The translations under genes and the position numbers were made by a program. A DNA stretch of 64,000 bases from NCBI GenBank assembly GCA_963772225.1, contig CAVYWD010000002.1, positions 2,138,872 to 2,202,871 on the forward strand, in the 5' to 3' direction. This stretch comes from an uncultured delta proteobacterium (GTDB lineage: Bacteria; Myxococcota; Myxococcia; Myxococcales; UBA5297). The notes under the pieces were generated by a model, which was not told the DNA's origin, did no database searches, and worked only from the letters and a program-made list of their open reading frames with translations. Position 1 is the stretch's first letter. Every line of letters starts with the position of its first letter. Shown one piece after another: positions 31,609 to 49,541 of the stretch.

Positions 31609-32051
31609 CGGGACGCCAAAAAGGTCAGCGCTGCGAGTGCCAGGAAGAGCGGCGAGTAGATCCGGCGATTGAGCCGCTCGAAGGGGCTCCCGACCGTCTC
31701 GGGGCGCAGGCGAGCATCGACGAAGCCCTCCAGCCCGCGCACCAGCAAGACCCCAGCTCCGAGCAACGCGGCTCCCCGCACCAGGTTGTGGGGGACCGGA
31801 AGCACCAGGAGCCCAGCGGCGCAAAGCGCCGTTGCAGCCGCCCCCAGGAGCACCACCGCGACCGCCCAAGTCGCCGCGGTCCCCGGCATGCGCATGCCCG
31901 GCCGGCCTCCCACCACCGTCCGCGCCAGGTCGTCCGGATCCGCGCCCGGCCAGAGTCCCCCGAGCGCCCAGTAGCCGTGCAGGACCGCGATGGCCGCGAA
32001 GGCGGCGGCAGCGAGGCTTCCGGCCAGCGCGCTGACGGAGCTGCGGATCAT
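31605..32051 (-). CDS. DUF3995 family membrane protein
   Basis: ORF 31605..32063; ATG at 32051 overlaps the corrected PNPOx stop (ATGA). Four hydrophobic helices and HGYWALGGLWPG. Confidence 0.65.
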   Translation of the reverse strand: MIRSSVSALAGSLAAAAFAAIAVLHGYWALGGLWPGADPDDLARTVVGGRPGMRMPGTAATWAVAVVLLGAAATALCAAGLLVLPVPHNLVRGAALLGAGVLLVRGLEGFVDARLRPETVGSPFERLNRRIYSPLFLALAALTFLASR

Positions 32052-32604
32052 GGCTCGCTCCAAGTTCCGCCGCGCCGGACGAGCCTCGCCGAGCGCAGGC
32101 CGAAGGGCTCGGGGTGATCCCCCGGGCGCTGTCCCATACTTCGAGAGCCTGCGGCTCGAACCGGAGCAGCACGAAGTCGTCGTCCTCCGGGCCCTCGGGC
32201 CAAAAGGCCCACCAGGTCGGCATGAAGCGCCGGCGCCGCTCCGCCAGGTCCTCCACCAACTCGACCCGTCCCGAGAGCACGACGCAGGCTTTGCCGTCGT
32301 CCTCGTAGACCAAGGTGGCCCGCGGGTCGGCGCGCAGCTGCGCCGCCTTGCGCGAGCGCGGGCTCGTCCCGAGCCACACCTCCAGCTCCGGCCCGGGCGG
32401 GAACGGCTGCAGGGCGCGCGCCGCGATGCCGTCCTCCCCCGCGGTGGCGAGCACGCAGTACTTCTTTCGCCTCATGGTGGCCCGCGCCGCGCTGAGCACG
32501 GCCGCTGCGCCGCTCCGCTGTCGGGAGCGGCCCCAGCGGCGAAAGAGCAGGGACAGAGCGCGGGCGAGCCGGTGGCGGAGGGAGAGCGGGGATGGCATAT
32601 CCAT
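32048..32604 (-). CDS. pyridoxamine 5'-phosphate oxidase family protein, frameshifted as assembled (C5 run 32119-32123)
   Basis: MDMPSPLS...KKYCVLATAGEDGIAARALQPF...WLGTSPRSRKAAQLRADPRATLVYED...FVLLRFEPQALEVWDSARG lies in the frame of ORF 31075..35169. The plausible end (DHPEPFGLRSARLVRRGGTWSEP-stop at 32048) is in the frame of ORF 32048..32377. Confidence 0.65.
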
Positions 32605-32620
32605 ACCATACTGTATGGTA
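32604..32620. promoter_or_regulatory. 17-bp perfect palindrome, candidate TetR operator
   Basis: TACCATAC-T-GTATGGTA is an AT-rich island in GC-rich DNA. It abuts the start codon of the first gene of the PNPOx-DUF3995-TetR operon. Confidence 0.45.
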
Positions 32621-32672
32621 CGCTCCGCGCGCAACCGAATGCCTCGCGCGCTTCGAGACGCGAGCCTACCCT

Positions 32673-33413
32673 CTAGCGCACGTAGCCGGACGCCAGGGCC
32701 CGCGCCCAGTCGGACCGGTCCCGCTTGGCCGCGAGCGCCGCCATGGAGCGGTGGTCGTAGGGCACCGACCGCAGCGAAGAGACCCAGCCGACGTTTCGCC
32801 GCCACTCGACGACGGCGTACCGGGCGTCGGGCGACCCGGTCTCCATGACGTGCGGGTGGGGCAAGTCCGCGACGTACGCCGGGAGCCCCACGCTTCCCGG
32901 GTTCACGACGAGCTGGCCGCTCGAGGTGCGCACGCTCCTGGGCAGGTGCGAGTGGCCGCAGGCGATGAGCGGCGCGGCGGCGGCGCCGAGGCGAGACTCG
33001 ATCTCGGGGAGCCGGGCGGTTCGAGCGCCCCCGGCCTCGACGGTCTCGAGGAGATAGACGACGTCGCTTTCGGGCGTTCCGTGGAAGAACACCGCCTCGT
33101 TCCCGAGTCGGGCCGTGGAGCTGAGCGCGGCCAGCCACTGCAGCTCCAGCGCGTCGAGCTGCGACCGGGCGTATTCGTCCGACGGCCTGCGCTCGCCGTT
33201 CTTCTGCGTCAGGAGCTGGCGCTCGTGGTTCCCGGCGAGGTGCTTCCAAGGCATCGTCATGAGGAGCTGCGCCGTCTCCTTGGGCAGGAGTGGCCCGGAG
33301 AGGCTGTCCCCCAGGTTGACCACCGCGTCGACGCCTCGCCGGTTGAAGTCGGCGATGACCGCCTCCAGAGCGGCGAGGTTTCCGTGGATGTCCGAGAGGA
33401 GTGCGAGGCGCAT
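32673..33413 (-). CDS. metallophosphoesterase (YfcE/MJ0936-like, Metallophos_2)
   Basis: MRLALLSDIHGN, NLGDSLSG, GNHE, FFHGTP and CGHSH are the complete phosphoesterase motif set. Size is 246 aa. Confidence 0.85.
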   Translation of the reverse strand: MRLALLSDIHGNLAALEAVIADFNRRGVDAVVNLGDSLSGPLLPKETAQLLMTMPWKHLAGNHERQLLTQKNGERRPSDEYARSQLDALELQWLAALSSTARLGNEAVFFHGTPESDVVYLLETVEAGGARTARLPEIESRLGAAAAPLIACGHSHLPRSVRTSSGQLVVNPGSVGLPAYVADLPHPHVMETGSPDARYAVVEWRRNVGWVSSLRSVPYDHRSMAALAAKRDRSDWARALASGYVR

Positions 33414-33664
33414 GGCGTTCGGGCTTTCGAAGGATGGGAAACGGCTCGAGGAGTCTTACCGCAAAGCGAGCTTCAAGAGGGCGAGCGCGCCGATCGACAC
33501 CGCGGCGATCCCCAGAATTCTCAGGCCCTGCACGGCCAGCAGAATCGCCACGGCGGCGACGGTCCCCGCGAGGAGGCTCCCGAGGACGAGCGGAGGCGCG
33601 CGCCGGAGCCACCGGGCGACGAGGTCCAAGACCTCCCCTTCGCGGCCAAATCCGGCCTTCGCCG
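33275..33664. repeat. 390-bp direct repeat, copy 1 (left boundary of the island)
   Basis: Identical to 46297..46686 except G33492 versus A46514; the offset is exactly 13022 bp. It covers the 5' 139 nt of the phosphoesterase gene, the 42-nt spacer and the last 209 nt of the zinc-ribbon gene. Confidence 0.95.
33456..33664 (-). pseudogene. duplicated 3' fragment of the zinc-ribbon membrane protein gene (intact copy at 46478..47191)
   Basis: ORF 33456..33776 ends with AKAGFGREGEVLDLVARWLRRAPPLVLGSLLAGTVAAVAILLAVQGLRILGIAAVSIGALALLKLALR, identical to the C-terminus of 46478..47191. Upstream of 33664 the similarity stops. Confidence 0.85.
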
Positions 33665-35169
33665 AATCGCGCGGCCAAGTGGAGCGCGACGCGCTGTGCG
33701 GCCTCGCTGCGCCGAGGATCGCCCAGGCACGCGATGACGATTTTCGCATCCGGCCTCTGGCCATATGCGCTCTCACACGTCAAGGCGATCGACGTCACGG
33801 CGCCCGTCACGCAGTCGGCGCATTGCGGCGCCTCCCGGGCGACGTAGGCCCAGACCGGCGCCAGGACGTCGAGCGCCTCCAACGTCTCCGCAATGGGCAC
33901 CCGGGACACCAACCCCGGCAATGCCCAGAGCGTGCCGTGCTCGATGTTGTGGTCGTTGAAAGGCGTGCGACCGCACTGCGCTCGAGCGGCCGCGGCCAGA
34001 GCGCGGACGAGGCCCACCGCATTCGCTGCGCTCTGGAGCAGCCACTGCGCATGCTCCCAGATCTGCCAATGGAGCCCCTCCAGCTTGGCGAGCACTGCCA
34101 GCATCCTCGCCGGGCTCTTCTCGAACGCCCGATCGAGCACCGCTTCCACCACCGACAGCCGGTCTCCGCCGCGCCGCAGCGCCTCGGCCTGGCCCAGGCG
34201 ATCGACGAGCCAGCGAGCGGATTCGATCTCGAAATCCCGGCCTGCCCAGCGGCTCAGCTCGGCGAGAACCGCCTCCGGGTCGTCCGACTGGCGGGCGCGC
34301 CAGAGCCGCGCCTCGGCCTCCAGGGCTTCGCAGGCGACCGGGGGCCGTCCCAGGGCCTCGCAGAAGCGCTCGACCGCCTCCGGAGAGCGATTCGCCGAGT
34401 CGAGGAACGGGACCGGGCCATCGTCGTACCAGAAGCCTTTGTGGATGACGCCCGGGACCCCATCGCTCGCCAGGGGCAGCCCCGCCTCTTCGGCGATGGT
34501 GCGGCAAAGAGCGTTCACCGCCCGCTCCAGCTCAGGCCGCAGCGCGGGATCGAGGGCCAAGTAGAACTGGTAGCCGAGCAGCTGATTCGCCTTGGAGACC
34601 GCGAGCAGCTTGCGGCCCACGATGGTGCCGCTCTCATCCCGCAGGTAGAGGACCCGCTTGTTGGCGTCGAGCGCGTTGAGCACCGTCGACGCGGCGTTGC
34701 AGCCGTCCTGGAGCGACAGGCAGGTGTCGAAGGGGATGCCCATGCGCAGTACTTCGAGCGGGTCATCCTCCGCAGCGAGCGTCAGCGTCCGCCCGCCGTC
34801 GACGAGCTCCACCCGCCGCGGCCCGAGCCACGCCTCGACGTCGAAGCTCGCCTCGTTCCGGGCGATCCAGGTCTGATTCACAGAGAGCGCCCGGGTGATC
34901 GGCGCTCCGGGGCGCGCAGCGGCGTAGCGCAAGAGCTGCCCCAAGAGCTCGCGGTTGCGGTCCGTCGAGAGGTAGAAGCGCACGGCGTCGCGCCAGGCCG
35001 GCGTCATCGCGGGGAGGCGGATTCCGAACCCGGCGTGAAGCGCCTCCCGCAGCGCAGCGTCCAGCCGAACTTCCAGCGCGCGCCCCTGCGCCGGCTCGAG
35101 GCGCTCCCGCAGGTGGCGGCGCGTCCAGTCGCGGTCGGGGAGGTCTTCGCTCGCGAGGAGCTGATCCAC
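33665..35169 (-). CDS. hypothetical protein, apparently 3'-truncated at the island junction
   Basis: N-terminal ~500 codons of the chimeric ORF 31075..35169 (GTG 35169: VDQLLASEDLPDRDWTRRHLRERLEP...GIPFDTCLSLQDGCNAASTVLNALDANKRVLYLRDESGTIVGRKLL...CLGDPRRSEAAQRVALHLAARF). Composition is good. The frame runs without a stop straight into repeat copy 1, where it becomes Arg/Gly/Pro junk. Confidence 0.55.
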
Positions 35170-35427
35170 ACGCGCCAGCCGCTCGCGCTGGGCCGCGCTC
35201 GGCGCCGAGAGCCCCGCCAGGTGCTTCGGCGGCGGCGTGGAGGTGATCCACTCTCGGCGGTTTTGGTGATCCAGTCTCGGTTGCGGGGTTGCGGGCGCAG
35301 GCCGTCAGAAGGGTGCGGGCGAATACGGAGGCGGGCGAGCCGTCCCCGCCGTCTACGGATCGCGGAAACGAGGCGCTGTCCCCGCGCTGGACTCGTCAGG
35401 GCCCGGGCCCCATTCCGGAGCGGGATC

Positions 35428-35458
35428 AAAACGCCGACCGCCGAAGGCGGGTCGGGCG
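35428..35458 (-). terminator. intrinsic terminator candidate (minus strand)
   Basis: The minus strand reads GCGCCCGACCCGCC-TTCG-GGCGGTCGGCG followed by TTTTGATCC. This is a 9-10 bp GC stem with one bulge, a UUCG loop and a U4 tract, ~130 nt after the stop at 35588. Confidence 0.5.
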
Positions 35459-35587
35459 CCTCCGGCGGTCAGTCTGTCGCGGTGATGAAGGGCGCCCGGG
35501 CCGCAGGCATTCCGTCGCGGTCGCGGGACGCTCGCCAGCGGAGCCCGCTCTGAGGGCCACACCTGCGGCCCGGGCAGAATCGCGGTA

Positions 35588-35788
35588 TCAGCGCCTCTTG
35601 CGCGAGGCGGGCTGCAGGGGCCCGTAGAGGAGCTGGTTGGGCTCGGTCGCAGTCCAGTGGGCCTCGACCTCGTCGCCGTACTCTTGCCAGAGCGCGACTT
35701 GGAGCTGGCCGCAGAGGTCGAGCAGCCAAGCCGCGGTGGGGCCGTCGAGCGGCGGGAGGTTGAGCGTCAGCGGCGGCCTCTCAATCAT
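35588..35788 (-). CDS. small hypothetical ORF coupled to istB
   Basis: Tail of ORF 35588..36199: MIERPPLTLNLPPLDGPTAAWLLDLCGQLQVALWQEYGDEVEAHWTATEPNQLLYGPLQPASRKRR. Its ATG overlaps the corrected istB stop (ATGATTGA). Confidence 0.4.
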   Translation of the reverse strand: MIERPPLTLNLPPLDGPTAAWLLDLCGQLQVALWQEYGDEVEAHWTATEPNQLLYGPLQPASRKRR

Positions 35789-36609
35789 GGGGTTCCTCCA
35801 CCGGGAGCTCGTGTCCCTGCTCCTTGGCCCGCTGGTGCGCCTGGTGCTGCCGGAAGCTCGGCCCGTCGATGTCGATCCGGATGGAGGTCGCCGCCAGGCG
35901 GTCGAGGACCGCCGCGGCCAGGGTAGCGTCGCCCAGGTACTTGCCCCATGAGGAGAGCCTGATGTTCGAGCGTGATCGCCGTGCTGGCGCTGCCGTGTCG
36001 GCAATCCAAGAGGGTGAAGATCATGTGGGCCGCGGTCGGCTCGTCGTCGCGGCGCTTGAGCTGGCCCAGTCCGACGTCGTCGATCACCAGGAGCGTGGGC
36101 CGACACCAGCTCTTCATCCGCCGCTCGTAGGAGCCGTCGGCCAGGCCGGCGTAGAGGTGGTCGACCAGGTCGACGCACCGGGCGTAGCGCACCATCCACT
36201 CCTGCTCGCAGGCTTGGACCGCGAGAGCCTGCAGGATGTGGCTCTTGCCGGTCCCGCTCTTACCGGTGATCAAGAGGTCCTCGTGCCGCTGGACGAAGGA
36301 GAGCGCGAAGAGCTCCTCGACGAAGCGGCGATCGAGCTTGGGCTGGAAGTCCCAGTCGAAGGCCGCCATGGTCTTGCGGACCTTCATGCCGCTGCCCTTG
36401 ATGCGCCACTCGATGCTGCGCTCGCGCTTGATGGCGGCCGCCGCAGCGAGCAGCTGCTCGGCGGCTTCCAGGTCCGAGGGCTGGTGCTCCTTGACCCAGG
36501 CCAGATAGGCATCGATGGAAAGCCCCCTCAGACCGAGTCGGTCGAGGTGCCGCTCGATGCGCTCCCGGGCTTCGGCGGCGGGGCCTTTGAGGGAGGTGGG
36601 GGCTCGCAT
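35781..36609 (-). CDS. istB: IS21-family helper ATPase IstB, frameshifted as assembled (~35971)
   Basis: ORF 35785..36648; ATG at 36609. Walker A is GKSGTGKSH and Walker B is LLVIDDVG. After STAIT the frame yields LEHQALLMG junk. Shifting by one nt gives the conserved SNIRLSSWGKYLGDATLAAAVLDRLAATSIRIDIDGPSFRQHQA...stop at 35781. Confidence 0.85.
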
Positions 36610-38165
36610 GTCGCTTCTCCTTGGGGCTCGGGGACTGTGCCGCGGCACGGCAGCGCGTCGTACTCGGCGAGGTCGCGCGGCTCGGTGCAGCTCTGGGCGA
36701 CGGCGCTCTTGAGCTTCTTGGCCGAGGCCGCGGCGACGTACTCGTCGAGCCGGCGGCGGTCGGAGCGGGCGTTGAGGATCTTCTCGATGCTGACGTGCTC
36801 GAGAGCGCCGAAGCAGAGCGCGTGCGAGAGCGCCTTGCAGAGCTCGGCGGTGTCGTAGCCCTCGCGCAGCGAAAGGACCTTGCGCGCGTGGTAGCCGGCC
36901 GACCGCGAGTCGCGCCGCTCGAGCGCCGCCAGGTACTCCGCTCCGGGCCCCCCAAGATCCTGGAATGCGCGCCGCAGGTGCTCGAGGTCGGGCCCGCCCT
37001 CGGCGCGCGGGGGCCGATGCCCCGGCAGGATCGACTGCTGCTGCGCGCCGCGAGGCCTGAGCTCGTGCCGTGCCAGGCAGGTCAGGTCCGCTTTGTAGAC
37101 GAAGAGCTCATTCTCGGTGATGCGCACCGGGAGAATCTCGGTGACGTATTCATAGGGCAGGGAATATTCATTGGTCTCCCAGGTCATGAAGCCCTCGAGG
37201 TTGCAGAGCTTGTAGAGCACCCGCGCGGTGTCGTAGGGGTGGCGCGGCAGCGGCCGCAGCAGCGACTGCTCTTCGGCGAAGAGCTCCATCCGCGTGCGCC
37301 GCTTCATCCGCTTGATGGGGCGCAGGTCGGCGATGGTGTCCATCCACCGGGAGAGCTGGGCCTCGAGGTCGGCCAGGTCGCGGAATGAGCGGCCCCGGAA
37401 GAAGCTGAGGGAGAGCTCCCAGAAGCTCCGCTCGACCCGGGGCTTGCGGTTGGGGGCATGGCGCACGGCGACGGCGGAGAATTCGTAATAGGTGGCGAAA
37501 TCGACGAAGCGGGGATTGAGGATCGGCTGGTTGCCTTCCCAGCGCAGCACCACCGGCTTCTGGCTATCGTAGGTGCACCGGCGCGCGGCGCCCTGGAAGC
37601 GCGCGAAGGCGTGGCGGTGGCCGTCCATCAAAGGGTGCAGGCCGTTGCTCTCGAAGAAGCCGAAGTACTTCCGGGTCGAGTAGCGCAGTGCGTATCCGAA
37701 GGCCTGCAGGGTCATGGACGGCGCATGGGTGAATTCCACCGGGTAGGGCGACCAGTCGCACTCGCCCATGTCCCCCGGCACCCGCGGCGGCGTCTGGAGG
37801 CTCGGCTTGGGCGGCAACTTCGGGCGCAGGTTGCTCACCAGGACTTTCACGATGGTGTCGCCGCCTGCGTAGCCATGCTCGTCGCGCAAATGCTCGAAGA
37901 CCCGCTGCGCGGTGATGTCCGGATACTTCTCGAGCAGCTCGGTGATCAGGCTGCGAAAGGGGTCGAGCTTCGAGGCGCGGCGGCGCGAGCCGCGCACCCG
38001 TGGCAGCGCCGAGTGCGCAGTTTCGCGCGCCTCCTGGTGGCTCTTGACGATGCGCCGCACGGTGTTTCGGCTGATGTGCAGGGCCCGCGCGATCGCGCGC
38101 CAAGTCATCCCCTCCTTGTCGAGCTGCACCACGTCGTGGACCAGCTGCGGGTCAAGCGGAAGCAT
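36528..38165 (-). CDS. istA: IS21-family transposase IstA
   Basis: 545-aa ORF. The N-terminal HTH is MTWRAIARALHISRNTVRRIVKSH. The DDE integrase core is colinear with IstA proteins (CDWSPYPVEF...GFFESNGLHPLMDGH...CTYDSQKPVVLRWEG). Confidence 0.9.
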   Translation of the reverse strand: MLPLDPQLVHDVVQLDKEGMTWRAIARALHISRNTVRRIVKSHQEARETAHSALPRVRGSRRRASKLDPFRSLITELLEKYPDITAQRVFEHLRDEHGYAGGDTIVKVLVSNLRPKLPPKPSLQTPPRVPGDMGECDWSPYPVEFTHAPSMTLQAFGYALRYSTRKYFGFFESNGLHPLMDGHRHAFARFQGAARRCTYDSQKPVVLRWEGNQPILNPRFVDFATYYEFSAVAVRHAPNRKPRVERSFWELSLSFFRGRSFRDLADLEAQLSRWMDTIADLRPIKRMKRRTRMELFAEEQSLLRPLPRHPYDTARVLYKLCNLEGFMTWETNEYSLPYEYVTEILPVRITENELFVYKADLTCLARHELRPRGAQQQSILPGHRPPRAEGGPDLEHLRRAFQDLGGPGAEYLAALERRDSRSAGYHARKVLSLREGYDTAELCKALSHALCFGALEHVSIEKILNARSDRRRLDEYVAAASAKKLKSAVAQSCTEPRDLAEYDALPCRGTVPEPQGEATCEPPPPSKAPPPKPGSASSGTSTDSV

Positions 38166-39066
38166 CGGAGGCTCCTGGCGCCCCGAGGCGCGCGTCGAGG
38201 GTCCGGGTCAGGGCGGCCAGCGCACCGCGCAGCTCGACGAGCTCGCGCGAGACCACCTCGCACGCCGGCGCTCCCAAGCTGGCCAGCGACCGCTCCAAGA
38301 GCCGCGCGTGCAGGCGCGTCGAGAGGCGCTTCATCGCCCAGGCGTCCGCGACCATCTGCTCGCCGGGCGTGCGCCGCGGTGCACTGCCCTTGGGGGACTC
38401 GGCGGCCATGGGTGCGCTGGCTCGCTCCAGCAGCGCCGGCCACTCCGCTTCCTGGGCCGCGAGCAGCGAATCGACCAGGCGCGCGGTCTGCCGCGTGGTC
38501 AGCCCTCGTCGGGCTACCACCAGGCCCACAGCGTCCTGGTTGCCGCGCGGCAACCGCGAAAGCTCTCGCACCGCGGTGGCCGACAACAGCCCCAGCCGCA
38601 CATTCGCCGTCAGCTCGTCCGACAGGTCCTCTGCCAAAGCCAGACGCCGACACACCCAGCTCTTGTCCCGCCCGAGCAGAATCGCGATCTGCGGCTGGCT
38701 CACGTGGTCGTCGCGATAGAGGGAGCGCACCAGCCAGCCCTCCTCGAGCTCGCACAGACCCGCCCCGGCGTTGCAGCGCAACAGCCGCACCTTCGCCCCT
38801 GCAGAGTCGACGCCGTGGACCTCGACGCGCAGCTTCGACCACCCAAGCTCGCGCGAGGCGCTCAACCGCTTGAGTCCATCGAAGACCTCCAGCTTCTCGC
38901 CCATTCGAAAGGCCTGCACCGGCGTCAGCTGCCCGAGCTTCGAGAGCGACAGCTGCATCTGCTGCGTGGCCTCGCCCGCGCACAGTCGCACCGCCAAGAG
39001 CGAATCGCCCAGCTCGCTCGGCGCCATCTCGGTGCTCGCGGTCGACACGCCCGTCATGCGCGCCAC
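38152..39066 (-). CDS. ParB/Srx-like N-terminal domain + HTH protein, translationally coupled to istA
   Basis: 304-aa ORF. The ParB-N-like segment is KLEVFDGLKRLSASRELGWSKLRVEVHGV. The HTH is SQPQIAILLGRDKSWVCRRLALA. The stop at 38152 lies 14 nt inside istA (start 38165). Confidence 0.7.
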   Translation of the reverse strand: MARMTGVSTASTEMAPSELGDSLLAVRLCAGEATQQMQLSLSKLGQLTPVQAFRMGEKLEVFDGLKRLSASRELGWSKLRVEVHGVDSAGAKVRLLRCNAGAGLCELEEGWLVRSLYRDDHVSQPQIAILLGRDKSWVCRRLALAEDLSDELTANVRLGLLSATAVRELSRLPRGNQDAVGLVVARRGLTTRQTARLVDSLLAAQEAEWPALLERASAPMAAESPKGSAPRRTPGEQMVADAWAMKRLSTRLHARLLERSLASLGAPACEVVSRELVELRGALAALTRTLDARLGAPGASDASA

Positions 39067-39095
39067 CGTGCGCCCTCACCGAGATCCTTGGCCAT

Positions 39096-39319
39096 CCCGG
39101 CGCGTGACAGGGCCGTTTTTCCCTCTGAGAGAGCTCGAAGCCGGCGCGTGACACGTACCTGCGGTCACCCGCTGCCTGACGGCTCCTCAGAGGGAAAACG
39201 GCGACTCGCCGGCGCCGCCGAACGCCGAAGCATGCGCGTGACACTGCTCCGCTCTGCGCAAAACCCCGAGGTTTCCCCTGCTGCCGCGCCAACTTGGCCG
39301 CCGAAGCCGGCGCGTGACA
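39096..39319. repeat. array of four direct repeats (core GCGCGTGACA; three copies share CGAAGCNNGCGCGTGACA) plus nested inverted repeats
   Basis: Copies end at 39109, 39153, 39243 and 39319. Copies 2 and 4 are 18/18 identical and each is followed by GTCAC 11-12 nt later (GTGACA-N-GTCAC). CCGTTTTTCCCTCTGAG (39113-39129) pairs with CTCAGAGGGAAAACGG (39186-39201). Confidence 0.85.
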
Positions 39320-39331
39320 TCGCTCCACAGG

Positions 39332-39724
39332 TCACGGGCCTGCTCCCGCGCCTGGTGCGCACGAGCACAGCTCACGCAGCGCCTCGGTCAGGGCAGCGCG
39401 AGAAGGCCGCGGAGTCGCCAGCGCCAGCTCGAGCACGTCCTCGAGTCGCGCGCCGAACGAGCCCCCCTGGTCGCCCGCCTCCGGCGGCCCCGCGCCCGAT
39501 CGCAGGGCTCTCTTCTGGGCCCGGCATCGGGCTTGTCGCGCCTGCTCCGCCTTCCGGAACTCCTCAGGCGCCTTCGCTCGACGTTCGCGCGCCTGTCGCT
39601 TGCGTCTCGCCTGGCGACAGGCTTCGCTGCATGCATGCTGCGTCTCCGCCGCGCGAGGATTGGGGGAGTACCAACTCCTGCACTCGCTACACCGCCGACT
39701 GCGGACCTTCTTCCGGGGTCGCAT
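39332..39724 (-). CDS. small basic zinc-ribbon-like protein (hypothetical)
   Basis: 130-aa ORF MRPRKKVRSRRCSECRSWYSPNPRAAETQHACSEACRQARRKRQARERRAK... with a C-x2-C...C-x3-C pattern, followed by an Arg/Lys/Ala-rich helix. Confidence 0.5.
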   Translation of the reverse strand: MRPRKKVRSRRCSECRSWYSPNPRAAETQHACSEACRQARRKRQARERRAKAPEEFRKAEQARQARCRAQKRALRSGAGPPEAGDQGGSFGARLEDVLELALATPRPSRAALTEALRELCSCAPGAGAGP

Positions 39725-39775
39725 CCCTCGACCGTCACGCCGAAGGGGTCCTCCGGATACTTCTCGCCCTGAGAG

Positions 39776-41419
39776 CTACTCCGACTCCCTCGCCTCAACG
39801 ACCGGGTGGATCTCGAGGCCGCCGACAGGTGGATCTCGATCACGCCGCCGCTGAAGGCCAGGTGCTCGCGCTCTCCGAGGAGCTTCGCGCGCCGGGCGAA
39901 ATCGCGCATCAGTGCCCGCGGCAGCGCGGGCCTCGCTCCGGCGAGCTGGAGGAGATGGCAGTACCGATCCAGGAGCTCGTCGTCGTCGAGCCAGGCTGCG
40001 AACTCCGGGAAGAGCCGCCGGCCCGCCCCGGGCTCGGTCCCCGCGAGCTGGGCGCTCAGCGTCCGCGCCTGCGCCGGCGCGCGATTGACCAGGGCGAGAA
40101 CGGCGTCGAGCCGCGCCAGGCGCGAAGCCGGCGCCTCCTGGGCGTCGGAGCTCGCCGCGAGCAGTGCCCGCGCAAACAGCGCCAGCTCCCGGTCGCGTCC
40201 GGCAGCCTCCGTCCGGAAGATTCGACGGCGGCAACTTGAGCTCCACGCCGCTCGCCCGAAGCCGTGGGGCGAGGTCCAGCACCCAGCGCCCCCAGGCGCG
40301 CAGGGCGTCCACGTCCTCGATGTCCCGGAGTCCTTCCAGCCTCTTGGCCGCCGCCAGCTTCCCGAGCAGCTCGATTTCCAGCCCGCGCGCGAGGAGCTTC
40401 TGAGCGGCGGCGCGGTCATGGGGATTGAGCTTGAGCCGCAACAGCAGCAGCCCCTGCGCCATGGTCAAAGGCGCGCTCTCCGCCTGGGCGTTCGGCGACG
40501 ACAGCTCTCGCAGGACGAAGTGCACGTCGTCGGGCGTCAGCGCTCCGCTCGACTCGGGCAGAAAAAGAAGGGCGAGCAGCGCCAGGGCGCGCTCGAGCCG
40601 CCGGACGTAGTCGGGCTGCCGCGTCGAGCCGATCCGCGCCAGCTGGAGGGCGCCCGCGACCTCCACGGCCTCCGCGAGAATGGGCGGGAGCTCGCGGAGC
40701 TCCGCTGGGGTGTGCAGCGCAGCGCCGGGCCACGCCACGGCCTCGGCGAGAACCTCGTAGATGACCCGATCCCTGGCGCGGCCTGCGAAGCGCTGAGCGC
40801 GGGGCCTCAGCGTCGCGATGAACCCGTCGAGGACTTCCGCCGGAAGATCCGACTTCGCTCCGCGCTCCCCTCGGAACCGGGCGGCGATGGCCTCCACTCG
40901 CCGCTGCGCCGTCCTTCGCCGCTCCCGAGCCCAGGCGATCGATCGGGCCTTCCAGGCTGCGAGGGCGCGGCCCGCCTCCTCACCGCGGAGCGCCTCGACC
41001 AACTCGAGAGGCCCAGCAAGTCCTGGCGCAGACCGGAGCCTCGCCGAGAGCGCGTCGATCTGCGACTGCCGGCGCGCGAGCGTCGCGGCGTCCAACGATC
41101 CGTAGCGCCGGAGCGCCCGCAACTCGGCGGCCAGCTCCCGGAGATCGGGGTTCTGCACGAGGACTCTGAGGTCGCACTGAGCCGCGGCGAGAAAGCGAGG
41201 CGCGACCAGCGTCGGCGGGCGCTTCAGCTCGCAGAAGCGTTCCAGCGCCGCGGCCGAAACCCCGCCCTGCTCCCAGACGGCGTCGAGCAGAGCCGCCGGC
41301 AGCGAGATCGCGCGGACCTGGACCAGGTGCAATCCCTCGAGACAAGCGAGCGGTGCGCCCTCGAGCAGCGACAGCCGCAGCAGGGTTCTCTTGAGGTCGG
41401 CAACGGCGTCCTTACTCAT
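39776..41419 (-). CDS. large hypothetical protein, frameshifted as assembled (~40220, possibly again near the 3' end)
   Basis: The first ~400 codons of ORF 39776..41419 are protein-like (MSKDAVADLKRTLLRLSLLEGAPLACLEGLHLVQV...). After ...RASGVELKLPPS, the sensible sequence continues in the frame of ORF 39388..40419 (IFRTEAAGRDRELALFARALLAASSDAQ...FPEFAAWLDDDELLDRYCHLLQLAG...). No family is recognised. Confidence 0.5.
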   Translation of the reverse strand: MSKDAVADLKRTLLRLSLLEGAPLACLEGLHLVQVRAISLPAALLDAVWEQGGVSAAALERFCELKRPPTLVAPRFLAAAQCDLRVLVQNPDLRELAAELRALRRYGSLDAATLARRQSQIDALSARLRSAPGLAGPLELVEALRGEEAGRALAAWKARSIAWARERRRTAQRRVEAIAARFRGERGAKSDLPAEVLDGFIATLRPRAQRFAGRARDRVIYEVLAEAVAWPGAALHTPAELRELPPILAEAVEVAGALQLARIGSTRQPDYVRRLERALALLALLFLPESSGALTPDDVHFVLRELSSPNAQAESAPLTMAQGLLLLRLKLNPHDRAAAQKLLARGLEIELLGKLAAAKRLEGLRDIEDVDALRAWGRWVLDLAPRLRASGVELKLPPSNLPDGGCRTRPGAGAVCAGTARGELRRPGGAGFAPGAARRRSRPGQSRAGAGADAERPARGDRARGGPAALPGVRSLARRRRAPGSVLPSPPARRSEARAAAGTDARFRPAREAPRRARAPGLQRRRDRDPPVGGLEIHPVVEARESE

Positions 41420-41573
41420 GGAGGGGTGAAGGGACCTCGGATCCGCTCAGGGGCCCTCGGCCGCGAGAGCCACCACCTCTCTTGACCTGAAGGCGCCCGC
41501 CCGCCACCCTCACCTTCTCCAGAAGTCGAGCGACGGCGCACCCAGCGGCTCGGCTGGAAGGGCAAGGGGAAGC

Positions 41574-42842
41574 ATGAGGAAGAGAGCCCAATGGCCGCAT
41601 GTGCTCTTGGCTGCGGCCGCCTTCGCTGCCTGTAACCTCCCGGGAGGCATCGTCCCCGGTGACGCCCCCGCAGACGCTCGCACCGCGCCGATCGACGCCG
41701 GCGCTCCTGACGCTGGGGCACCAGGCTTCGATGCCGGGCATCGAGAGGACGCGGGCGGCTCCGACGCGAGGGCGCCAGCGCCCGATGCCAGCAGCGGCGA
41801 TGCTTCCATTTCGAACGCTGATGCCGGACCCGCCGACGGAGGGTTCTTCCTCATCGGCGCGGACGTCTCGTGGGTCCCCGAGGACGAGAGCGCCGGGGCG
41901 CGCTTCGTGGACACCGACGGGAAAGAAAGGGAGATCCTCGCCCTCCTGAAGAACCACGGATTCAATGCCATTCGCCTGCGAACGTTCGTGGACCCCGCCG
42001 CCGCGGACGGCTACTCCGCCTCGGGCTACTGCGACTTGAGTCACACGGTGGCCATGGCTCGGCGGGTCAGAGATGCGGGAATGAGGCTCTGCCTCGATCT
42101 TCACTACAGCGACAATTGGGCCGACCCCGGCAAGCAATGCATTCCTGTGGCGTGGCAGGGCCTGTCGGCGGCCCAGATGGCCCAGGCTGTTCACGACTAC
42201 ACCCGAGACGTCCTCTCGGCGCTGGACGCCGCGGGGGCGGCTCCCGATCTGGTGCAGATCGGCAACGAGATCACGCCAGGAATGCTCATCCACGTCTGCG
42301 ATTCGAAGGGCAGCCCCCAGTCGACCAGCGCCGTCAACGGAAGCACCGCAAGCTGGGCAAACCTGGCCAAATTCCTGAAAGCCGGGGTTCAGGCCGTCCG
42401 CGAGAGCAACCCCGGCATTCTCACGGTGGTTCACCTCGACCGCGGAGGCAGCGCCAGCGCGAGCTCCACCTGGATCAAGAATGCTCGGGCGAACGGCGTT
42501 CAATTCGACGTCTTTGCAGAATCGTGCTACGTGGCCTTCCAGGGCCAGCCGAGCGCATGGAAGACGACCTTCGATTCACTGGCCAGCAGCTATCCCGATC
42601 TCAAGCTCGCGATCGCCGAATACAACAATGAGGCCGTTTCGAGCCTCGCCGGCGAGACGAGCATGCAAGCCGCCTACGACGTCGTCTCCGGCCTCCCCGC
42701 TGCTCAAGGAATCGGGACTTTCTTCTGGGAGCCCACGCGCTCGGGCACCTGGGGCAGCGGCTTGTTCACGGCCAAAAGCAACGTGCGCACGGCCATCCCG
42801 AGCGCGATGGCCGTCTACGATCAATGGAAGGCGTCGCGCTGA
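41574..42842 (+). CDS. arabinogalactan endo-beta-1,4-galactanase (GH53) lipoprotein
   Basis: Lipobox AAAFAAC, a low-complexity Asp/Ala/Gly linker, then GADVSWVPEDE...NAIRLRTFVDP...LDLHYSDNWADPGKQ...VQIGNEIT...IAEYN...FFWEP, which is colinear with GH53 GanB-type enzymes. Confidence 0.8.
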   Translation: MRKRAQWPHVLLAAAAFAACNLPGGIVPGDAPADARTAPIDAGAPDAGAPGFDAGHREDAGGSDARAPAPDASSGDASISNADAGPADGGFFLIGADVSWVPEDESAGARFVDTDGKEREILALLKNHGFNAIRLRTFVDPAAADGYSASGYCDLSHTVAMARRVRDAGMRLCLDLHYSDNWADPGKQCIPVAWQGLSAAQMAQAVHDYTRDVLSALDAAGAAPDLVQIGNEITPGMLIHVCDSKGSPQSTSAVNGSTASWANLAKFLKAGVQAVRESNPGILTVVHLDRGGSASASSTWIKNARANGVQFDVFAESCYVAFQGQPSAWKTTFDSLASSYPDLKLAIAEYNNEAVSSLAGETSMQAAYDVVSGLPAAQGIGTFFWEPTRSGTWGSGLFTAKSNVRTAIPSAMAVYDQWKASR

Positions 42843-42869
42843 AACCGGGGCGCGAACGCGGCCTCGGCC

Positions 42870-43047
42870 TCAGGCCGGCACGTCGGAGACCCGCGGCGAC
42901 CGCCGCGAATCGATCCGCGAGCGCCGCCGGCATCGCTTCGTGCACCTGGCCGGCGCGCACCACGCCCCCGGAGCCCGGCAGATCGCGGGTCGCGCAGGCC
43001 GAGGCCACGACGGTCGCCTGAAACCCGAGGTCGAGGCTCTCGATGAC
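42870..43047 (-). pseudogene. C-terminal fragment of an isochorismatase-family hydrolase gene
   Basis: Within ORF 42766..43140, only the segment VIESLDLGFQATVVASACATRDLPGSGGVVRAGQVHEAMPAALADRFAAV looks like protein, and it matches the C-terminal third of isochorismatase-like hydrolases. It is cut at ~43047, where the IS91-type fragment starts. Confidence 0.35.
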
Positions 43048-43690
43048 CGAGAACGACAGCGGCAAGGTCGTCCTGAAGCCCAGGCGCCCGCTGGCAGACG
43101 GTAGGGCTGAGCTGGAGATGACCCCGGTCACCCTGCTCAAGCGCTTGGCGGGCCTGGTGCCCCGGCCCAGAAGCCACGCGATCCACTACTACGGCGGGTT
43201 CGCCAACCACGCGAAACTGCGCAGTCGGATCGTTCCGCGCAGCCCGAGGATCCGCAGGCGCTGCCGAGGTGCGCCCAAGCTCCAAGGCCAGCTCGAATTG
43301 CCACTGCCCGACTTCATGCCGAGCTTCGGCGACCACGTGGACCTGCTGCAACGGGTCAAGGCGCCGGCCCCACGAGCGAGGGAGCTCGATTGGCCCTCTT
43401 TATTGAGACGAACGTTCGGGTCTGAAATCTTCAACTGTGACTGCGGAGGGCGGCCGTGTGGTGGCGTACGTGAGCGACCGAGCCCAGGCGGTGGCGATAC
43501 TCGAGAAGCTGGGGTTGCCCACGCAGGCACCGGCGATCGCACGGGCCCGCGGACCGCCGCGCCAGGAAGAGCTGTTCGACCGGCCATCCGGCGACTTCGC
43601 CGCCGACCCGATCTACCCGGACGGCGAAGGCACCTCGGCGAGGCTTGCTCGTCGAGTCGGGGATGATCTCAGCCTCAACTCAATTTTGCC
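43043..43690 (+). pseudogene. 3' fragment of an IS91-family (Y2, rolling-circle) transposase gene, also frameshifted (~43452)
   Basis: ORF 43043..43666 reads GRAELEMTPVTLLKRLAGLVPRPRSHAIHYYGGFANHAKLRSRIVP...LDWPSLLRRTFGSEIFNCDCGGR. It continues in ORF 43437..43847 as RVVAYVSDRAQAVAILEKLGLPTQAP...PPRQEELFD. This is the conserved C-terminal third of IS91-family transposases; the N-terminal two thirds are missing. Confidence 0.65.
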
Positions 43691-43820
43691 ACCAAAGACG
43701 CTCGCGGCGGCTCCGCCCCGCCGGACCGTTCGGAGGTCTCCGGCCACCCCGCCCTCCGACGCCAACGGGGGAAACGCAGTTCGAAACGCCTGCGCTCCCC
43801 AGGGCGGGGCCCTCGATGAG
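43421..43820 (+). repeat. IS91-type 3'-end sequence, copy A (inverted partner at 45846..46121)
   Basis: For example, GGTCTCCGGCCACCCCGCCCTCCGACGCCAACGGGGGAAACGCAGTTCGAAACGCCTGCGC (43733-43795) aligns with the reverse complement of 45866-45930 (GGTCTCCGACCCCTCCCGCCTTCCGACGCTGGCTGGGGAAACGCAGCTCGAAACGCCTACGC). Similarity extends to both sides, with one ~125-bp gap in copy B. Confidence 0.75.
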
Positions 43821-43951
43821 TTCGCCAGCCCGGCGCCAGCGCGATAGCCGAGCTGAAATCGAGGCCCTGTCGCCTACTGCATGAAGCGCGCCCGGCCAGA
43901 CACTGCTCGCCCTCGAGCACGTCCAATTCCTACGCTGTGTGAGCCTTCGAC

Positions 43952-45628
43952 TCAGGCGCGGGGAAGAAACTCCATGAGGTCGTCCCGCCGAAACGTTGCC
44001 GAGAGTTTGCGCAGACTCACCTGGCTCGCGGGGAGCACGTGGACGAGCGCATCGCCCAGCATCTTCAGCGCGCCGTTGAAGTAAGCCTCGCCCTTCGCTT
44101 CCACCAACTGACGTGCGGCGTCGAAGTTGCGATGGTCGACCCTCTCCAATGGCACCTTGAGGTCCGCCAGGAGCTCCTGGCCCATGAGCATTGCAGCGAA
44201 GTATGACGCATAGGGAAGCCAGTCGGGCGAGCCCTGTGGGGGGCTCCTGCGCTTGTTCTCAGCGATACGCAGCAGCAGCACGGCGAGCACGAGCTGGGCA
44301 CCATTCAGATTCGAGCCGAAGATCTCGTCGTACAGCTCGTCGAAATGTTGCATGGCGCGAAACCTCGCTCGATGCGGCATTCGTCGCCACACCGAGAGGA
44401 CCGCTTCCGCGGCCGTTCCCGTGCTGATCTCGTTTCGGGCGAACGGCTTCTCGGCTCGCTGGCGACGGTACTCGTAGCCGAGTTGACGAATCGACAGCTC
44501 GAGCGTCTTCTGCCGCTCGTCGTTCGATCGGAGATCCTTGAGATCGACCAGGCTCTGGCTGTTCGTCGCCCACGTAATTGTCTGCCCCTGCGGCCCGCCT
44601 TCCTGTGGGAGCTGATACAGACGCGCGAGGACGTACGTGTGCTCGAGTCCGGGAGGAGCCTTCTCGAACGCGGCGAGCGTCAGTTGGATGGTACGGCTCG
44701 TCTGGCCCCCGTTGATGATCTGCAGCCCGTCGACCTTCACGTTGTGGTTCTCAGGCTGAAAGGCGCTGTAGTCGAAGCGGTCGCAAGTGAGCGTGATGCC
44801 GTTGTTGTAGAAGAAGAAGTTCGTGCGGTCGGCATCGCTTTGCAGCGTCTTCTGAATCGCCTCGTTCACCCAGCTGCCTTCGAAGCCCAGAAAGCGGCGG
44901 ATGTTCCGGTCCAGGAGGCCGTCGCCGTGCGTTTCCATGAGCCGCGCGAGTTCCGAAACCGGGAGCTTCCCGATGAACACTCTGGAGAAGTTGAGATCCT
45001 CGACGATTGATTTGCCGGCGAAGTGAAGGGTGTCTTTGACGCTCGGAGGCCTCTGCAGTATGCGAACGAGGTCGTCGTGGTTGACATGCTCGAAACGCAC
45101 CCGGTCGCCGAACTGTTCGCGGTCGATGATCTGCTGAACATCCTCGCTCCATTTCACGCCATTGCTGCAGAGGATGAAGCGCACCCGGGGGATGTTCTCT
45201 GCGATGAGCGAGCGGATTTCCTCGACCCGTACCTGAAGACGCGGGTTCAGGTTGTCGGGTGCGTCGGGCCGCAGGAGCATCCGTATAGCTTGAATGGCCT
45301 TGAGCACCGCGTTTTGCTCGAACCCCTTCACGCCCTCGAGGTTCGCGTGATGGTACTTCCCCTGAAAGAAGGTGACCGTGAACGATCCGTCGGAAATGTC
45401 CGAAATGTCGATCGCGTCGACGCCGAAGTCGTTTCCTCCCTCCGTGAGCGCTTCGAGGGCTTCATCTTCGGTGAGCCCGAGCGTCACTTTTTGGCAGAGG
45501 ACGACGAAGGCCACGGAACGAGCCGCGGTCTCGTCGAGGGTCTTACCAACGGCCTGATCGAGCTGGGGCTTGAGTCGCAGCGCGAGCGCGCGGACCTGCT
45601 GATCGATGATGCCGACATTGACGTTCAT
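43952..45628 (-). CDS. AIPR (abortive infection phage resistance) family protein
   Basis: 558-aa ORF, lower GC than its flanks. GNDFGVDAIDI, FFQGKYH, RNIRRFLG, FFFYNNGITLTCD and QIINGGQTSRT are the AIPR/PF10592-type motifs. Confidence 0.8.
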   Translation of the reverse strand: MNVNVGIIDQQVRALALRLKPQLDQAVGKTLDETAARSVAFVVLCQKVTLGLTEDEALEALTEGGNDFGVDAIDISDISDGSFTVTFFQGKYHHANLEGVKGFEQNAVLKAIQAIRMLLRPDAPDNLNPRLQVRVEEIRSLIAENIPRVRFILCSNGVKWSEDVQQIIDREQFGDRVRFEHVNHDDLVRILQRPPSVKDTLHFAGKSIVEDLNFSRVFIGKLPVSELARLMETHGDGLLDRNIRRFLGFEGSWVNEAIQKTLQSDADRTNFFFYNNGITLTCDRFDYSAFQPENHNVKVDGLQIINGGQTSRTIQLTLAAFEKAPPGLEHTYVLARLYQLPQEGGPQGQTITWATNSQSLVDLKDLRSNDERQKTLELSIRQLGYEYRRQRAEKPFARNEISTGTAAEAVLSVWRRMPHRARFRAMQHFDELYDEIFGSNLNGAQLVLAVLLLRIAENKRRSPPQGSPDWLPYASYFAAMLMGQELLADLKVPLERVDHRNFDAARQLVEAKGEAYFNGALKMLGDALVHVLPASQVSLRKLSATFRRDDLMEFLPRA

Positions 45629-45845
45629 GGTGCCTCTCTTGCCCGAGTTTCAAGTGTACCTGAAGAACAGGCGGCATAACTTGCCCGTTGTCCCGGGCAC
45701 CAGAATCGTCGGGCGCGCCATCGTAGGCTTGAGTTGCGGTCGTTCGCCACTCCAAGGACCACTAACCCGGTGCTAAGCCAGCTCGAGGCCTCACCGCTGC
45801 TTAAAGGAAGCCCTTCCCAAGGCAAGTCGGTTGCTGCTTTGAACG

Positions 45846-46121
45846 CGCCATGAGCAGACCCACCCTGTGCGTAGGCGTTTCGAGCTGCGTTTCCCCAGCC
45901 AGCGTCGGAAGGCGGGAGGGGTCGGAGACCGCCGCATGGTAGTACTGGACAGAGCCGAGCGAGCGTGTTTGCTGGCAAGACCGGCCAGGAGGCTAGACCA
46001 TCCCCGGCCCGGCGAGCAGAGCGTCGCCGAGCTGCCTTCGTCCACGCCGGCCCCCTCCCTGAAGCGCCGTGGGCGCTCCGCTCGCAGTGCACGTATTCAC
46101 TCCGTGCGTGAAGACTTCAGA
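45846..46121 (-). repeat. degenerate IS91-type 3'-end sequence, copy B (inverted relative to copy A)
   Basis: See copy A. It retains a decayed remnant of the transposase C-terminus (TCTGAAGTCTTCA... versus TCTGAAATCTTCA...). The transposase body is cut off by the island junction at 46296/46297. Confidence 0.7.
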
Positions 46122-46296
46122 TGCGCGCCGCGCTGGCCGCGGTGGACTGGCCCGCCCGCTTCCAACCCATGATTCCGGCGGGCCTGACGCTGGCGTCGGA
46201 GTCGGCGGCCTTAGGGGCCGGACGGCGGCGGCGGTCGAGGTGAGCGGGCGCGGCGCCTGTCCCTCTCACGGGGCGCGCGGCGAACGCGTGGAGGCC

Positions 46297-46435
46297 TCTC
46301 CTTGGGCAGGAGTGGCCCGGAGAGGCTGTCCCCCAGGTTGACCACCGCGTCGACGCCTCGCCGGTTGAAGTCGGCGATGACCGCCTCCAGAGCGGCGAGG
46401 TTTCCGTGGATGTCCGAGAGGAGTGCGAGGCGCAT
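46297..46435 (-). pseudogene. duplicated 5' fragment of the metallophosphoesterase gene (intact copy at 32673..33413)
   Basis: ORF 46211..46435 starts MRLALLSDIHGNLAALEAVIADFNRRGVDAVVNLGDSLSGPLLPKE, identical to the intact gene, then diverges into junk at 46296. Confidence 0.85.
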
Positions 46436-46686
46436 GGCGTTCGGGCTTTCGAAGGATGGGAAACGGCTCGAGGAGTCTTACCGCAAAGCGAGCTTCAAGA
46501 GGGCGAGCGCGCCAATCGACACCGCGGCGATCCCCAGAATTCTCAGGCCCTGCACGGCCAGCAGAATCGCCACGGCGGCGACGGTCCCCGCGAGGAGGCT
46601 CCCGAGGACGAGCGGAGGCGCGCGCCGGAGCCACCGGGCGACGAGGTCCAAGACCTCCCCTTCGCGGCCAAATCCGGCCTTCGCCG
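46297..46686. repeat. 390-bp direct repeat, copy 2 (right boundary of the island)
   Basis: 389/390 identical to 33275..33664. Confidence 0.95.
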
Positions 46687-47191
46687 CGTCCTCGGCGTTC
46701 TTCGCTTCCAGGCGCCGTCGGTTCGCCTCCGACACCTCGCGCGCGAACGCCGCCGCGCCCTCTCGGCGCAGTTGGCTCGCCTCGGCTTCGGCCTGAGCTC
46801 GCGCCTCGCGCAGGACCTCGAGGGCCGCGTCCTCGCTCTCCTTCTCCGCGAGGCGCTTCTGCCAGAGCGCCTCGTTGAATGCCCGCTGCTCGGGCGAATC
46901 GAGGCCGGCGCCGCACTGCTGGCAATGGGCCGCGCGGGCGCCGTTGTCGGCCTCGCACCGCGCACAGCGCAGGAACGGCATCTCGGTCGAGGGGCGCGCG
47001 TCGTCGAGGGCCGGCGGCGGCTCCTGAAAGCGCGCGGCGCTCGCGCCCGAGGAGCTCGCCCGCGGCGCCTCGGCCGAGGGCTGCTCGACCGCCTCGAACC
47101 GGCTCGAATGGGCCGGAGCGCTCGGCGCTGTCGGCGCTTCCTTCCGCGAGCGCTCGAGCTTCAGGAAGCGCGACTTGCGATCGCCCTTCAC
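46478..47191 (-). CDS. zinc-ribbon / coiled-coil protein with a C-terminal double TM anchor
   Basis: 237-aa ORF. GTG at 47191 overlaps the AAA gene stop (GTGA). The zinc ribbon is FLRCARCEADNGARAAHCQQCG. There is an Ala/Glu/Arg helical region. The C-terminal hydrophobic segments are PPLVLGSLLAGTVAAVAILLAV and ILGIAAVSIGALALLKL. Confidence 0.7.
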   Translation of the reverse strand: MKGDRKSRFLKLERSRKEAPTAPSAPAHSSRFEAVEQPSAEAPRASSSGASAARFQEPPPALDDARPSTEMPFLRCARCEADNGARAAHCQQCGAGLDSPEQRAFNEALWQKRLAEKESEDAALEVLREARAQAEAEASQLRREGAAAFAREVSEANRRRLEAKNAEDAAKAGFGREGEVLDLVARWLRRAPPLVLGSLLAGTVAAVAILLAVQGLRILGIAAVSIGALALLKLALR

Positions 47192-48765: not shown

Positions 48766-48849
48766 GGCAAGGGGCCGCGCTGTCTCGCCTTGGCGGCGGG
48801 CTCTCGCGTCCTCGCTCAAGGAGGATACACGACGTGCGATCATGGCCGC

Positions 48850-49509: not shown

Positions 49510-49541
49510 GCGGGTCCAGCCCCTTCGCTCGGCTCATCGGC

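Follow-up and report, generated by a model that had tools for sequence, protein, structure and literature searches.

A 390-bp direct duplication brackets a 12.6-kb island with a predicted defence gene in an uncultured delta proteobacterium: a candidate case of homology-driven integration

A 64,000-nt stretch of DNA from an uncultured delta proteobacterium of the Myxococcales (GTDB lineage UBA5297; assembly GCA_963772225.1, contig CAVYWD010000002.1, positions 2,138,872 to 2,202,871; hereafter the window) carries a 12,632-bp island (bp 33665-46296) that separates a zinc-ribbon gene (ZnR) from a metallophosphoesterase gene (MPE) and is bracketed by a 390-bp direct repeat drawn from the ends of those two genes. 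Homology-driven integration, either of the Campbell type or one-ended, is the best explanation for this arrangement, and we hold it with moderate confidence. The insert is a patchwork and not an autonomous element. While the kind of event is already known, the window adds a new case in which a probable homology-mediated insertion, a long duplication and a defence gene come together in a variable region.

The two copies of the repeat, R1 (bp 33275-33664) and R2 (bp 46297-46686), are each 390 nt in length, are offset by 13,022 bp and are identical at 389 of 390 positions. The single mismatch (G33492 / A46514) is synonymous in the ZnR frame, where it separates the isoleucine codons ATC and ATT. 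The edges of the repeat are sharp, with identity just outside both ends at background level (approximately 7-11 of 25 positions). No further long repeat was found in the 64-kb window, and a chance origin of this one can therefore be excluded. Signal scans found no promoter or terminator in or near it. Read on the minus strand, each copy comprises the last 209 nt of ZnR including the stop codon (bp 33456-33458 in R1 and 46478-46480 in R2), a 42-nt spacer and nt 1-139 of MPE, whose ATG is at bp 33413 in R1 and bp 46435 in R2.

Native sequence is continuous with each copy on its outer side only. On its low-coordinate side, R1 continues into an intact MPE gene (bp 32673-33413, minus strand) encoding a 246 aa protein (Pfam Metallophos_2, E-value: 5.8e-17). 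On its high-coordinate side, R2 continues into a whole ZnR gene (bp 46478-47191, minus strand) encoding a 237 aa protein with a C-terminal hydrophobic tail. MPE is full length at R1 only, being reduced at R2 to a 46-codon stub fused to island sequence, and ZnR is full length at R2 only, with its tail kept at R1. The inner edges of the two copies form the junctions J1 (bp 33664/33665) and J2 (bp 46296/46297). An earlier annotation of the window, made without database searches (the sequence-only reading), had reported the near-perfect repeat with its one mismatch and its 13,022-bp spacing, as well as the division of the two whole genes between the copies; sequence comparison and gene mapping bear these claims out in every particular. 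Its view that the event was recent is likewise supported by the 389/390 identity.

A duplication of 390 bp is, as had also been argued, far longer than any target duplication left by a transposase, which measures from a few bp to about 15 bp and lies against defined or inverted-repeat ends. Genomic islands made by an integrase have a tyrosine or serine recombinase gene at one end and often use a tRNA or tmRNA gene for attachment. The island has no terminal inverted repeats at its ends (bp 33665 and 46296), no integrase or recombinase domain was found in the scanned open reading frames (ORFs), and the window contains no tRNA or tmRNA gene and no Rfam match. Based on the length of the duplication and on the absence of terminal repeats, an integrase and a tRNA target, this is not the footprint of a transposase or an integrase.

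We infer the recombination route and the form of the donor as follows. The incoming DNA would already have carried a copy of the ZnR 3' end, the spacer and the MPE 5' end, and would have recombined with the resident locus through it. A circular molecule could have been taken in by a single crossover (Campbell-type integration); a linear one, joined at one end by homology and at the other illegitimately, would equally give this product. Either route would leave one repeat copy on each native flank. In the one-ended route J1 would be the new joint while J2 could be older, and this would sit well with the AIPR gene found at the same junction in a second lineage (see below). The Campbell-type integration of a circular molecule proposed earlier is thus supported in part, as regards its homology-driven footprint; a circle is only one candidate donor, as one-ended joining would give the same product. 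Homologous recombination can delete the DNA between direct repeats of such length. Recombination between R1 and R2 would be expected to release a 13,022-bp circle and to reunite MPE with ZnR and with the AAA ATPase gene that precedes it (bp 47188-48765, minus strand, 525 aa); at present 13 kb separate the AAA-ZnR pair from MPE, and the gene upstream of MPE, on the same strand, is a truncated one.

Related loci indicate what the site looked like before the insertion. ZnR homologues number only 8 in 5.8 billion proteins, counting the source genome as one. A search of a plasmid collection gave no match. In two Logan loci (L056 and L057; ZnR 63% and MPE 76% identity, with the window MPE 76% identical to that of L056 at the aa level) the site is empty, with the order AAA', ZnR, 149 nt, MPE and next gene. 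Removing bp 33665-46686 from the window had been predicted to restore an uninterrupted arrangement of this kind, and it is seen contiguous in these relatives (63-76% aa identity), although the spacer is 149 nt and not the 42 nt expected for the empty site. AAA lies directly before ZnR in five of the five related loci that were read (L053-L057), and in the window the GTG start of ZnR overlaps the AAA stop codon as GTGA. MPE is a less constant partner. In L054 and L055 the order is AAA, ZnR and transketolase (ZnR identity approximately 39% in L054), AAA, ZnR and S41 are absent near MPE in all 52 of the more distant loci, and in a scan of genome contigs with MPE the matches reached at most 64% identity and neither AAA nor ZnR was linked to them. 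AAA-ZnR is therefore a conserved pair that has MPE as a neighbour only within the closest group (L056/L057, with a relic in L053), and the three-gene operon of the sequence-only reading is supported only in part, by the pairing of the first two genes. These comparisons support the view that AAA'-ZnR-MPE without the insert is the ancestral state, the insertion and duplication probably being derived.

The third relative with MPE sequence, L053 (JGI 3300055024, Ga0556608_0000196:10709-12910), is occupied by an AIPR gene of its own. Its order is AAA (approximately 90% aa identity to the window gene), ZnR (58%), 62 nt, AIPR on the opposite strand (64%), approximately 170-220 nt, a decayed relic of MPE (nt ~53/68 to ~312, with indels) and what remains of the gene found after MPE in L056. 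The three loci (window, L053 and L056) are separated from one another by roughly equal distances, and outside the shared block a comparison of the window with L053 gave only high-GC noise. The L053 AIPR gene (G+C content 0.60) is oriented opposite to that of the window and has a different breakpoint. The closest homologue of the window AIPR protein (82% aa identity) is found at an unrelated locus (L059/L060, 3066-8804), between genes for an AAA_21/AAA_15 (OLD/AbiEii-like) ATPase and a RhuM-family protein, in a typical defence-island setting with no AAA, ZnR or MPE nearby. No conserved flanks or inverted repeats were found around AIPR in L053, L060 and L061. Because orientation and breakpoint differ, because the closest match lies at an unrelated locus and because the gene is low in G+C in both the window and L053, we favour independent acquisitions, which appear to explain AIPR at this site better than a single ancestral insertion.

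The same comparison bears on the idea that the duplication is old, dating from an AIPR insertion in an ancestor shared by L053 and the window lineage, each of which later rearranged it in its own way, and that its copies were kept alike by gene conversion. In both lineages AIPR does have ZnR on one side and MPE sequence on the other, and its identity between them (64%) is near that of ZnR (58%). Nevertheless, 390-bp repeats 13 kb apart should have deleted the island long before proteins diverged by 30-40%, the breakpoints and orientations differ, the window protein is nearer to that of L059/L060 (82%) than to that of L053, and the low G+C content of AIPR is unameliorated in both lineages. We consider an old, homogenised duplication very improbable.

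The sequence-only reading had raised an assembly artefact as its alternative. The AIPR protein of the window is encoded exactly on L063, a Logan contig of 2,730 bp built from short reads of run ERR11594402 (a run of which no mention was found in the literature), and this contig matches bp 46326-43596 of the window at 99.96%, with one 1-nt indel at bp 43668. Its sequence extends across J2 and breaks off exactly 30 nt into R2. We take Logan contigs to be built with k = 31, so that they stop k-1 = 30 nt into a sequence with two predecessors. The end point of L063 thus implies that J2 is present in the raw reads and that the MPE-side edge of the repeat occurs in two contexts. As an independent contig crosses J2, a pure scaffolding artefact there is unlikely.

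A subtler form of it is that ZnR and MPE meet at only one place in the chromosome and that the assembler threaded in a separate 13,022-bp molecule or subpopulation variant, made up of the island and one copy of the segment. The repeat is a node with two ways in and two ways out, and L063 shows both contexts without placing them on one molecule. Consensus errors or heterogeneity do exist, as the 1-nt indel between L063 and the window indicates, and a 1-nt frameshift in the large gene described below may be a further assembly error. On the other hand, the source contig is 3.05 Mb in the protein database, which suggests long-read data that would easily span 390 bp; the copies differ at one base, which a single sequence used twice would not; and a free 13-kb circle would not persist, given that no recognised replication gene is found in the island. 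Mis-threading of a separate molecule is, in our judgement, a distinctly improbable source of the arrangement.

The junction at the other end of the island, J1, joins truncated gene to truncated gene. It lies within a large gene at approximately aa 1053, where members of the family are 1,300-1,500 aa in length, and is an arbitrary break of the sort expected for an illegitimate joint and unlike the terminus of an element. Both ends of the island look arbitrary in this sense, with a truncated gene at J1 and unassigned DNA at J2, and this would also suit a staggered double-strand break in which nicks approximately 390 nt apart on opposite strands were followed by end joining of a linear 12.6-kb fragment and fill-in of the overhangs, with no need for homology in the donor. 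One such event would account for both junctions and for the near-identity of the copies. It would need a later mutation for the single mismatch, however, and it leaves the AIPR gene at the same junction in L053 unexplained. It also counts against this scheme that we know of no documentation of 390-nt overhangs as a routine outcome in bacteria. We regard a staggered break as decidedly unlikely.

The island also holds remains of ISCR/IS91-family elements. A 5'-truncated and degenerate transposase remnant of the Y2 type (bp 42860-43666, plus strand) matches positions 353-466 of a 509-position NCBIfam model at about bp 43058-43450; its Y2_Tnp match is weak and its reading frame degenerates. Just 3' of the remnant is arm A (bp 43617-43808, plus strand) of an inverted repeat whose arm B (bp 45859-46050, minus strand) lies on the far side of the AIPR gene, so that the arms flank AIPR in inverted orientation. 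They are approximately 190 nt in length and approximately 78% identical with indels, and they extend a 48-nt inverted repeat that was seen initially. Arm B is solo. Its outer end faces AIPR and its transposase side faces J2 and R2, from which it is separated by 246 nt of unassigned and apparently non-coding DNA (bp 46051-46296). We read both arms as oriIS-type (IS91-type) ends from position alone, arm A lying at the place where oriIS is found in IS91-family elements. In the IS91 family oriIS abuts a GTTC or CTTG target and no target duplication is made (PMC13181058). In the island, GTTC occurs within 11-14 nt after each arm as delimited here (bp 43820-43823 for arm A and bp 45844-45841, minus strand, for arm B). 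No intact HUH-Y2 transposase or terIS was identified in the island, where the transposase is represented by its C-terminal remnant only, and no protein similarity to the remnant was found in bp 46051-46296.

L063 ends, at bp 43596, just inside the transposase remnant, and its 1-nt difference from the window (bp 43668) lies close by. This end point may indicate that the sample contains several copies of the ISCR sequence, in which case intact ones could exist elsewhere, or it may reflect local heterogeneity.

These remains allow a specific version of homology-driven integration, in which an ISCR element beside nt 139 of MPE read through its terminator into the MPE 5' end, spacer and ZnR 3' end, carried these 390 bp to other DNA, and formed a circle that was rescued by homologous recombination. 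Such a route has been proposed for ISCR1 where it lies between duplicated 3'-conserved segments. A transposase remnant is present, arm B is 246 nt from J2 with its transposase and terminator side toward R2, and GTTC, an IS91 target (PMC13181058), is near each arm. The resulting order of repeat, ISCR end, captured DNA and repeat equals that of complex class 1 integrons (PMC4839121). Several features do not fit. First, only 246 nt, without similarity to the remnant, are found where a transposase gene of approximately 1.5 kb and a terIS would be expected. Second, the arms have diverged by approximately 22% and are old, compared with 0.3% for the repeat. Third, this scheme would require J1 to be a transposition joint or a natural adjacency, whereas two truncated genes are fused there, and the oriIS identity of the arms comes only from where they lie. 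The IS91 rolling-circle capture suggested by the sequence-only reading has circumstantial support from the topology and the orientation of arm B, while the arrangement of IS91 end and target expected at the junctions is absent. This route is possible but rather unlikely.

Homology-driven integration in general, with either form of donor, is our preferred reading, and the following observations weigh against it. No donor or circular form has been seen. The L063 contig fits equally well with a 13,022-bp circle coexisting with an empty chromosomal site. No IS91 end or target tetranucleotide can be recognised directly at J1 or J2, and because the ISCR arms are approximately 78% identical and the repeat is 99.7% identical, IS91 activity need not relate to the duplication. 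Finally, a simple one-step circle model does not predict AIPR at the same locus in L053, a finding which suggests that the duplication may be younger than some of the sequence on the island side of J2.

The arrangement can be compared with several known systems. As in Campbell-type integrants of suicide or integrative plasmids, the direct repeats are the shared segment, the interrupted genes are whole at one copy only, and the product is reversible by recombination between the repeats. In contrast to such integrants, no vector, replicon or circular form was identified here, and the shared segment is an arbitrary 390 bp across two gene ends that is joined by two illegitimate junctions. Complex class 1 integrons, on which Stokes et al. 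reportedly published in 1993, provide a second parallel. They consist of a 3'-conserved segment (3'-CS), ISCR1, captured genes and a second, partial 3'-CS (PMC4839121), and elements of the IS91 family move neighbouring DNA along with themselves and form circles (PMC13181058). The island likewise has a duplicated host segment bracketing an IS91-family end and captured genes, and its IS91-type end beside one copy points the same way. It differs in that its ISCR sequences are remnants without an intact transposase, its cargo consists of a defence gene, a glycosidase and a broken large gene instead of resistance genes, its host is a high-GC environmental bacterium, and there is no clean ISCR boundary at the junctions.

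A third parallel is provided by homology-facilitated illegitimate recombination (PMC3240628) and transformation-generated merodiploids (PMC3784515). In both cases a homologous anchor combined with an illegitimate joint can add DNA, duplicating the overlap if the joint is upstream of the anchor end, and J1 resembles such a joint. Known cases, however, usually add little DNA and delete recipient sequence instead of duplicating it. The island also resembles defence islands between core genes in having a low-GC, AbiU-like AIPR gene beside mobile-element debris, and defence hotspots in that the same intergenic neighbourhood is AIPR-occupied in a second lineage (L053). The comparison with hotspots is limited to two occupied loci and one empty locus, and no integrase or targeting machinery was found.

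Beyond the insertion itself, added interest could come only from the AIPR gene at this site in L053 and from the ISCR1-like topology, and both rest on few loci. Taken together they raise the idea that the ZnR/MPE junction is a recurrent AIPR landing site, with delivery by IS91/ISCR one-ended capture followed by homologous rescue and with the 390 bp as a fresh footprint. We think this unlikely. If it were true, the mechanism of ISCR1 resistance regions would be shuffling phage-defence genes in an uncultured high-GC lineage, and if the shared AIPR site reflects targeting, the site would be a hotspot to which rolling-circle elements bring defence genes; three informative loci make this no more than a lead. 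Apart from these possibilities, the locus shows clearly, in a natural case, the kind of long flanking duplication that would result from entry through a short patch of homology, and it could serve as a worked case of how variable regions grow.

The layout of the island is more orderly than the term "mosaic", used in the sequence-only reading, would suggest. The list of contents given there (IS21- and IS91/ISCR-family sequences, a GH53 galactanase, an AIPR gene and gene fragments) is broadly correct, but most of what it gave as fragments and unknown ORFs belongs to a single large gene into which the IS21 element has inserted. The middle part of this gene (aa ~531-1053) is at bp 33665-35223 on the minus strand and is cut at J1; it matches a family of 1,300-1,500 aa proteins with 1,535 matches at E ≤ 0.001 (best identity 57%). 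The N-terminal part (aa 1-533) was located by tblastn at bp 39857-41419 on the same strand, four family members aligning over residues 6-409 at bp 41413-40229 and residues 411-533 at bp 40224-39856. The two stretches are one large gene that is interrupted at bp 35223/35224 and bp 39856/39857 and is ended by J1. The 1-nt frameshift between the aligned segments (bp 40224-40229, near bp 40225) is either a real pseudogenising mutation or an error of the assembly consensus. No Pfam domain was found in the gene or its family.

The C-terminal 250-450 aa of the large gene are not in the window, as tblastn finds nothing past aa ~1053. The same search rejects a location at the other end of the island, as circular permutation would have it. 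A continuation downstream of MPE in the same frame was also considered and was rejected, because the frame there consists of three small genes. We consider the large gene host-like. A member of its family is found in an ordinary chromosomal context in L058 (GCA_049841135.1).

The element that splits the gene is an intact IS21-family element of 4,633 bp (bp 35224-39856, minus strand) with terminal inverted repeats of approximately 38 nt and a perfect 8-bp target duplication, GCCAGGTG, at bp 35216-35223 and 39857-39864 (8/8 identical). It has the features of its family, namely IstA, IstB, terminal inverted repeats and a target duplication in the 4-8-bp range. IstB is encoded at bp 35785-36648 (Pfam IstB_IS21, E-value: 6.9e-37; NCBIfam IS21_help_AAA, 141 bits, which is below the cutoff of 200) and IstA at bp 36528-38165 (NCBIfam transpos_IS21, E-value: 1.1e-58, 199 bits against a cutoff of 160). 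Once the element is taken out together with one copy of the target duplication, a stop-free frame of 639 codons results that is collinear with residues 411-1051 of P0010. At 4.6 kb the element is unusually long, and a ParB-like gene (bp 38152-39066) and a small NinG-like ORF (bp 39332-39724) lie within it, upstream of istA. Between these two, at bp 39092-39319, are four copies of an 18-nt direct repeat, CGAAGCCGGCGCGTGACA, which are possibly operator or parS-like sites. Because the 18-nt repeats have no inverted partner, the element could be taken to lack one end, but this was rejected, as its true ends are bp 35224 and 39856. Judging from the 8/8 target duplication and the 389/390 identity of R1 and R2, both the IS21 insertion and the 390-bp duplication look recent, in an order that is not readable from the sequence, whereas the ISCR arm insertions are probably old given the approximately 78% identity of the arms. 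The AIPR gene would come after this ISCR debris and before the duplication in the sequence of layers.

The remaining genes of the island are a GH53 galactanase gene (bp 41574-42842, plus strand; Pfam Glyco_hydro_53, E-value: 4e-74) and the AIPR (AbiU-like) gene (bp 43952-45628, minus strand), which encodes a 558 aa protein (Pfam AIPR, E-value: 1.1e-42, 147 bits against a cutoff of 25; PADLOC AbiU, E-value: 4.2e-38). Based on these domain matches, the latter is a predicted abortive-infection or defence gene. The G+C content is 0.72 for the large gene, 0.66 for the GH53 gene and 0.61 for AIPR, compared with 0.70 for the window, and these differences point to a mosaic origin of the insert.

Long spurious ORFs are common in DNA of approximately 70% G+C, and third-position GC frame plots were used throughout to map genes. 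A frame of 1,410 codons on the minus strand (bp 31075-35304) was rejected as one gene and is a high-GC artefact, coding only in parts as it passes through TetR, DUF3995, PNPOx-like and MPE sequences, the repeat and the truncated large gene. Similarly, the 770 aa "AAA" ORF of the sequence-only reading (bp 47188-49533) was overcalled because a high-GC antisense frame is open by chance. It is two genes, the minus-strand AAA gene of 525 aa (bp 47188-48765) and a plus-strand gene at bp ~48850-49509, to which the rest of the ORF belongs; both have counterparts in L053. ORF length carries no meaning at such G+C content, and annotators should expect the 390-bp repeat to yield two truncated gene copies. 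The wider neighbourhood resembles ordinary chromosome, with three small genes (PNPOx-like, DUF3995 and TetR) downstream of MPE and with genes for a Ser/Thr kinase-FGE fusion, a sigma factor, an S41 peptidase and a TonB-type receptor elsewhere. The L053 counterpart of the plus-strand gene beside AAA has a weak match to DPBB_1.

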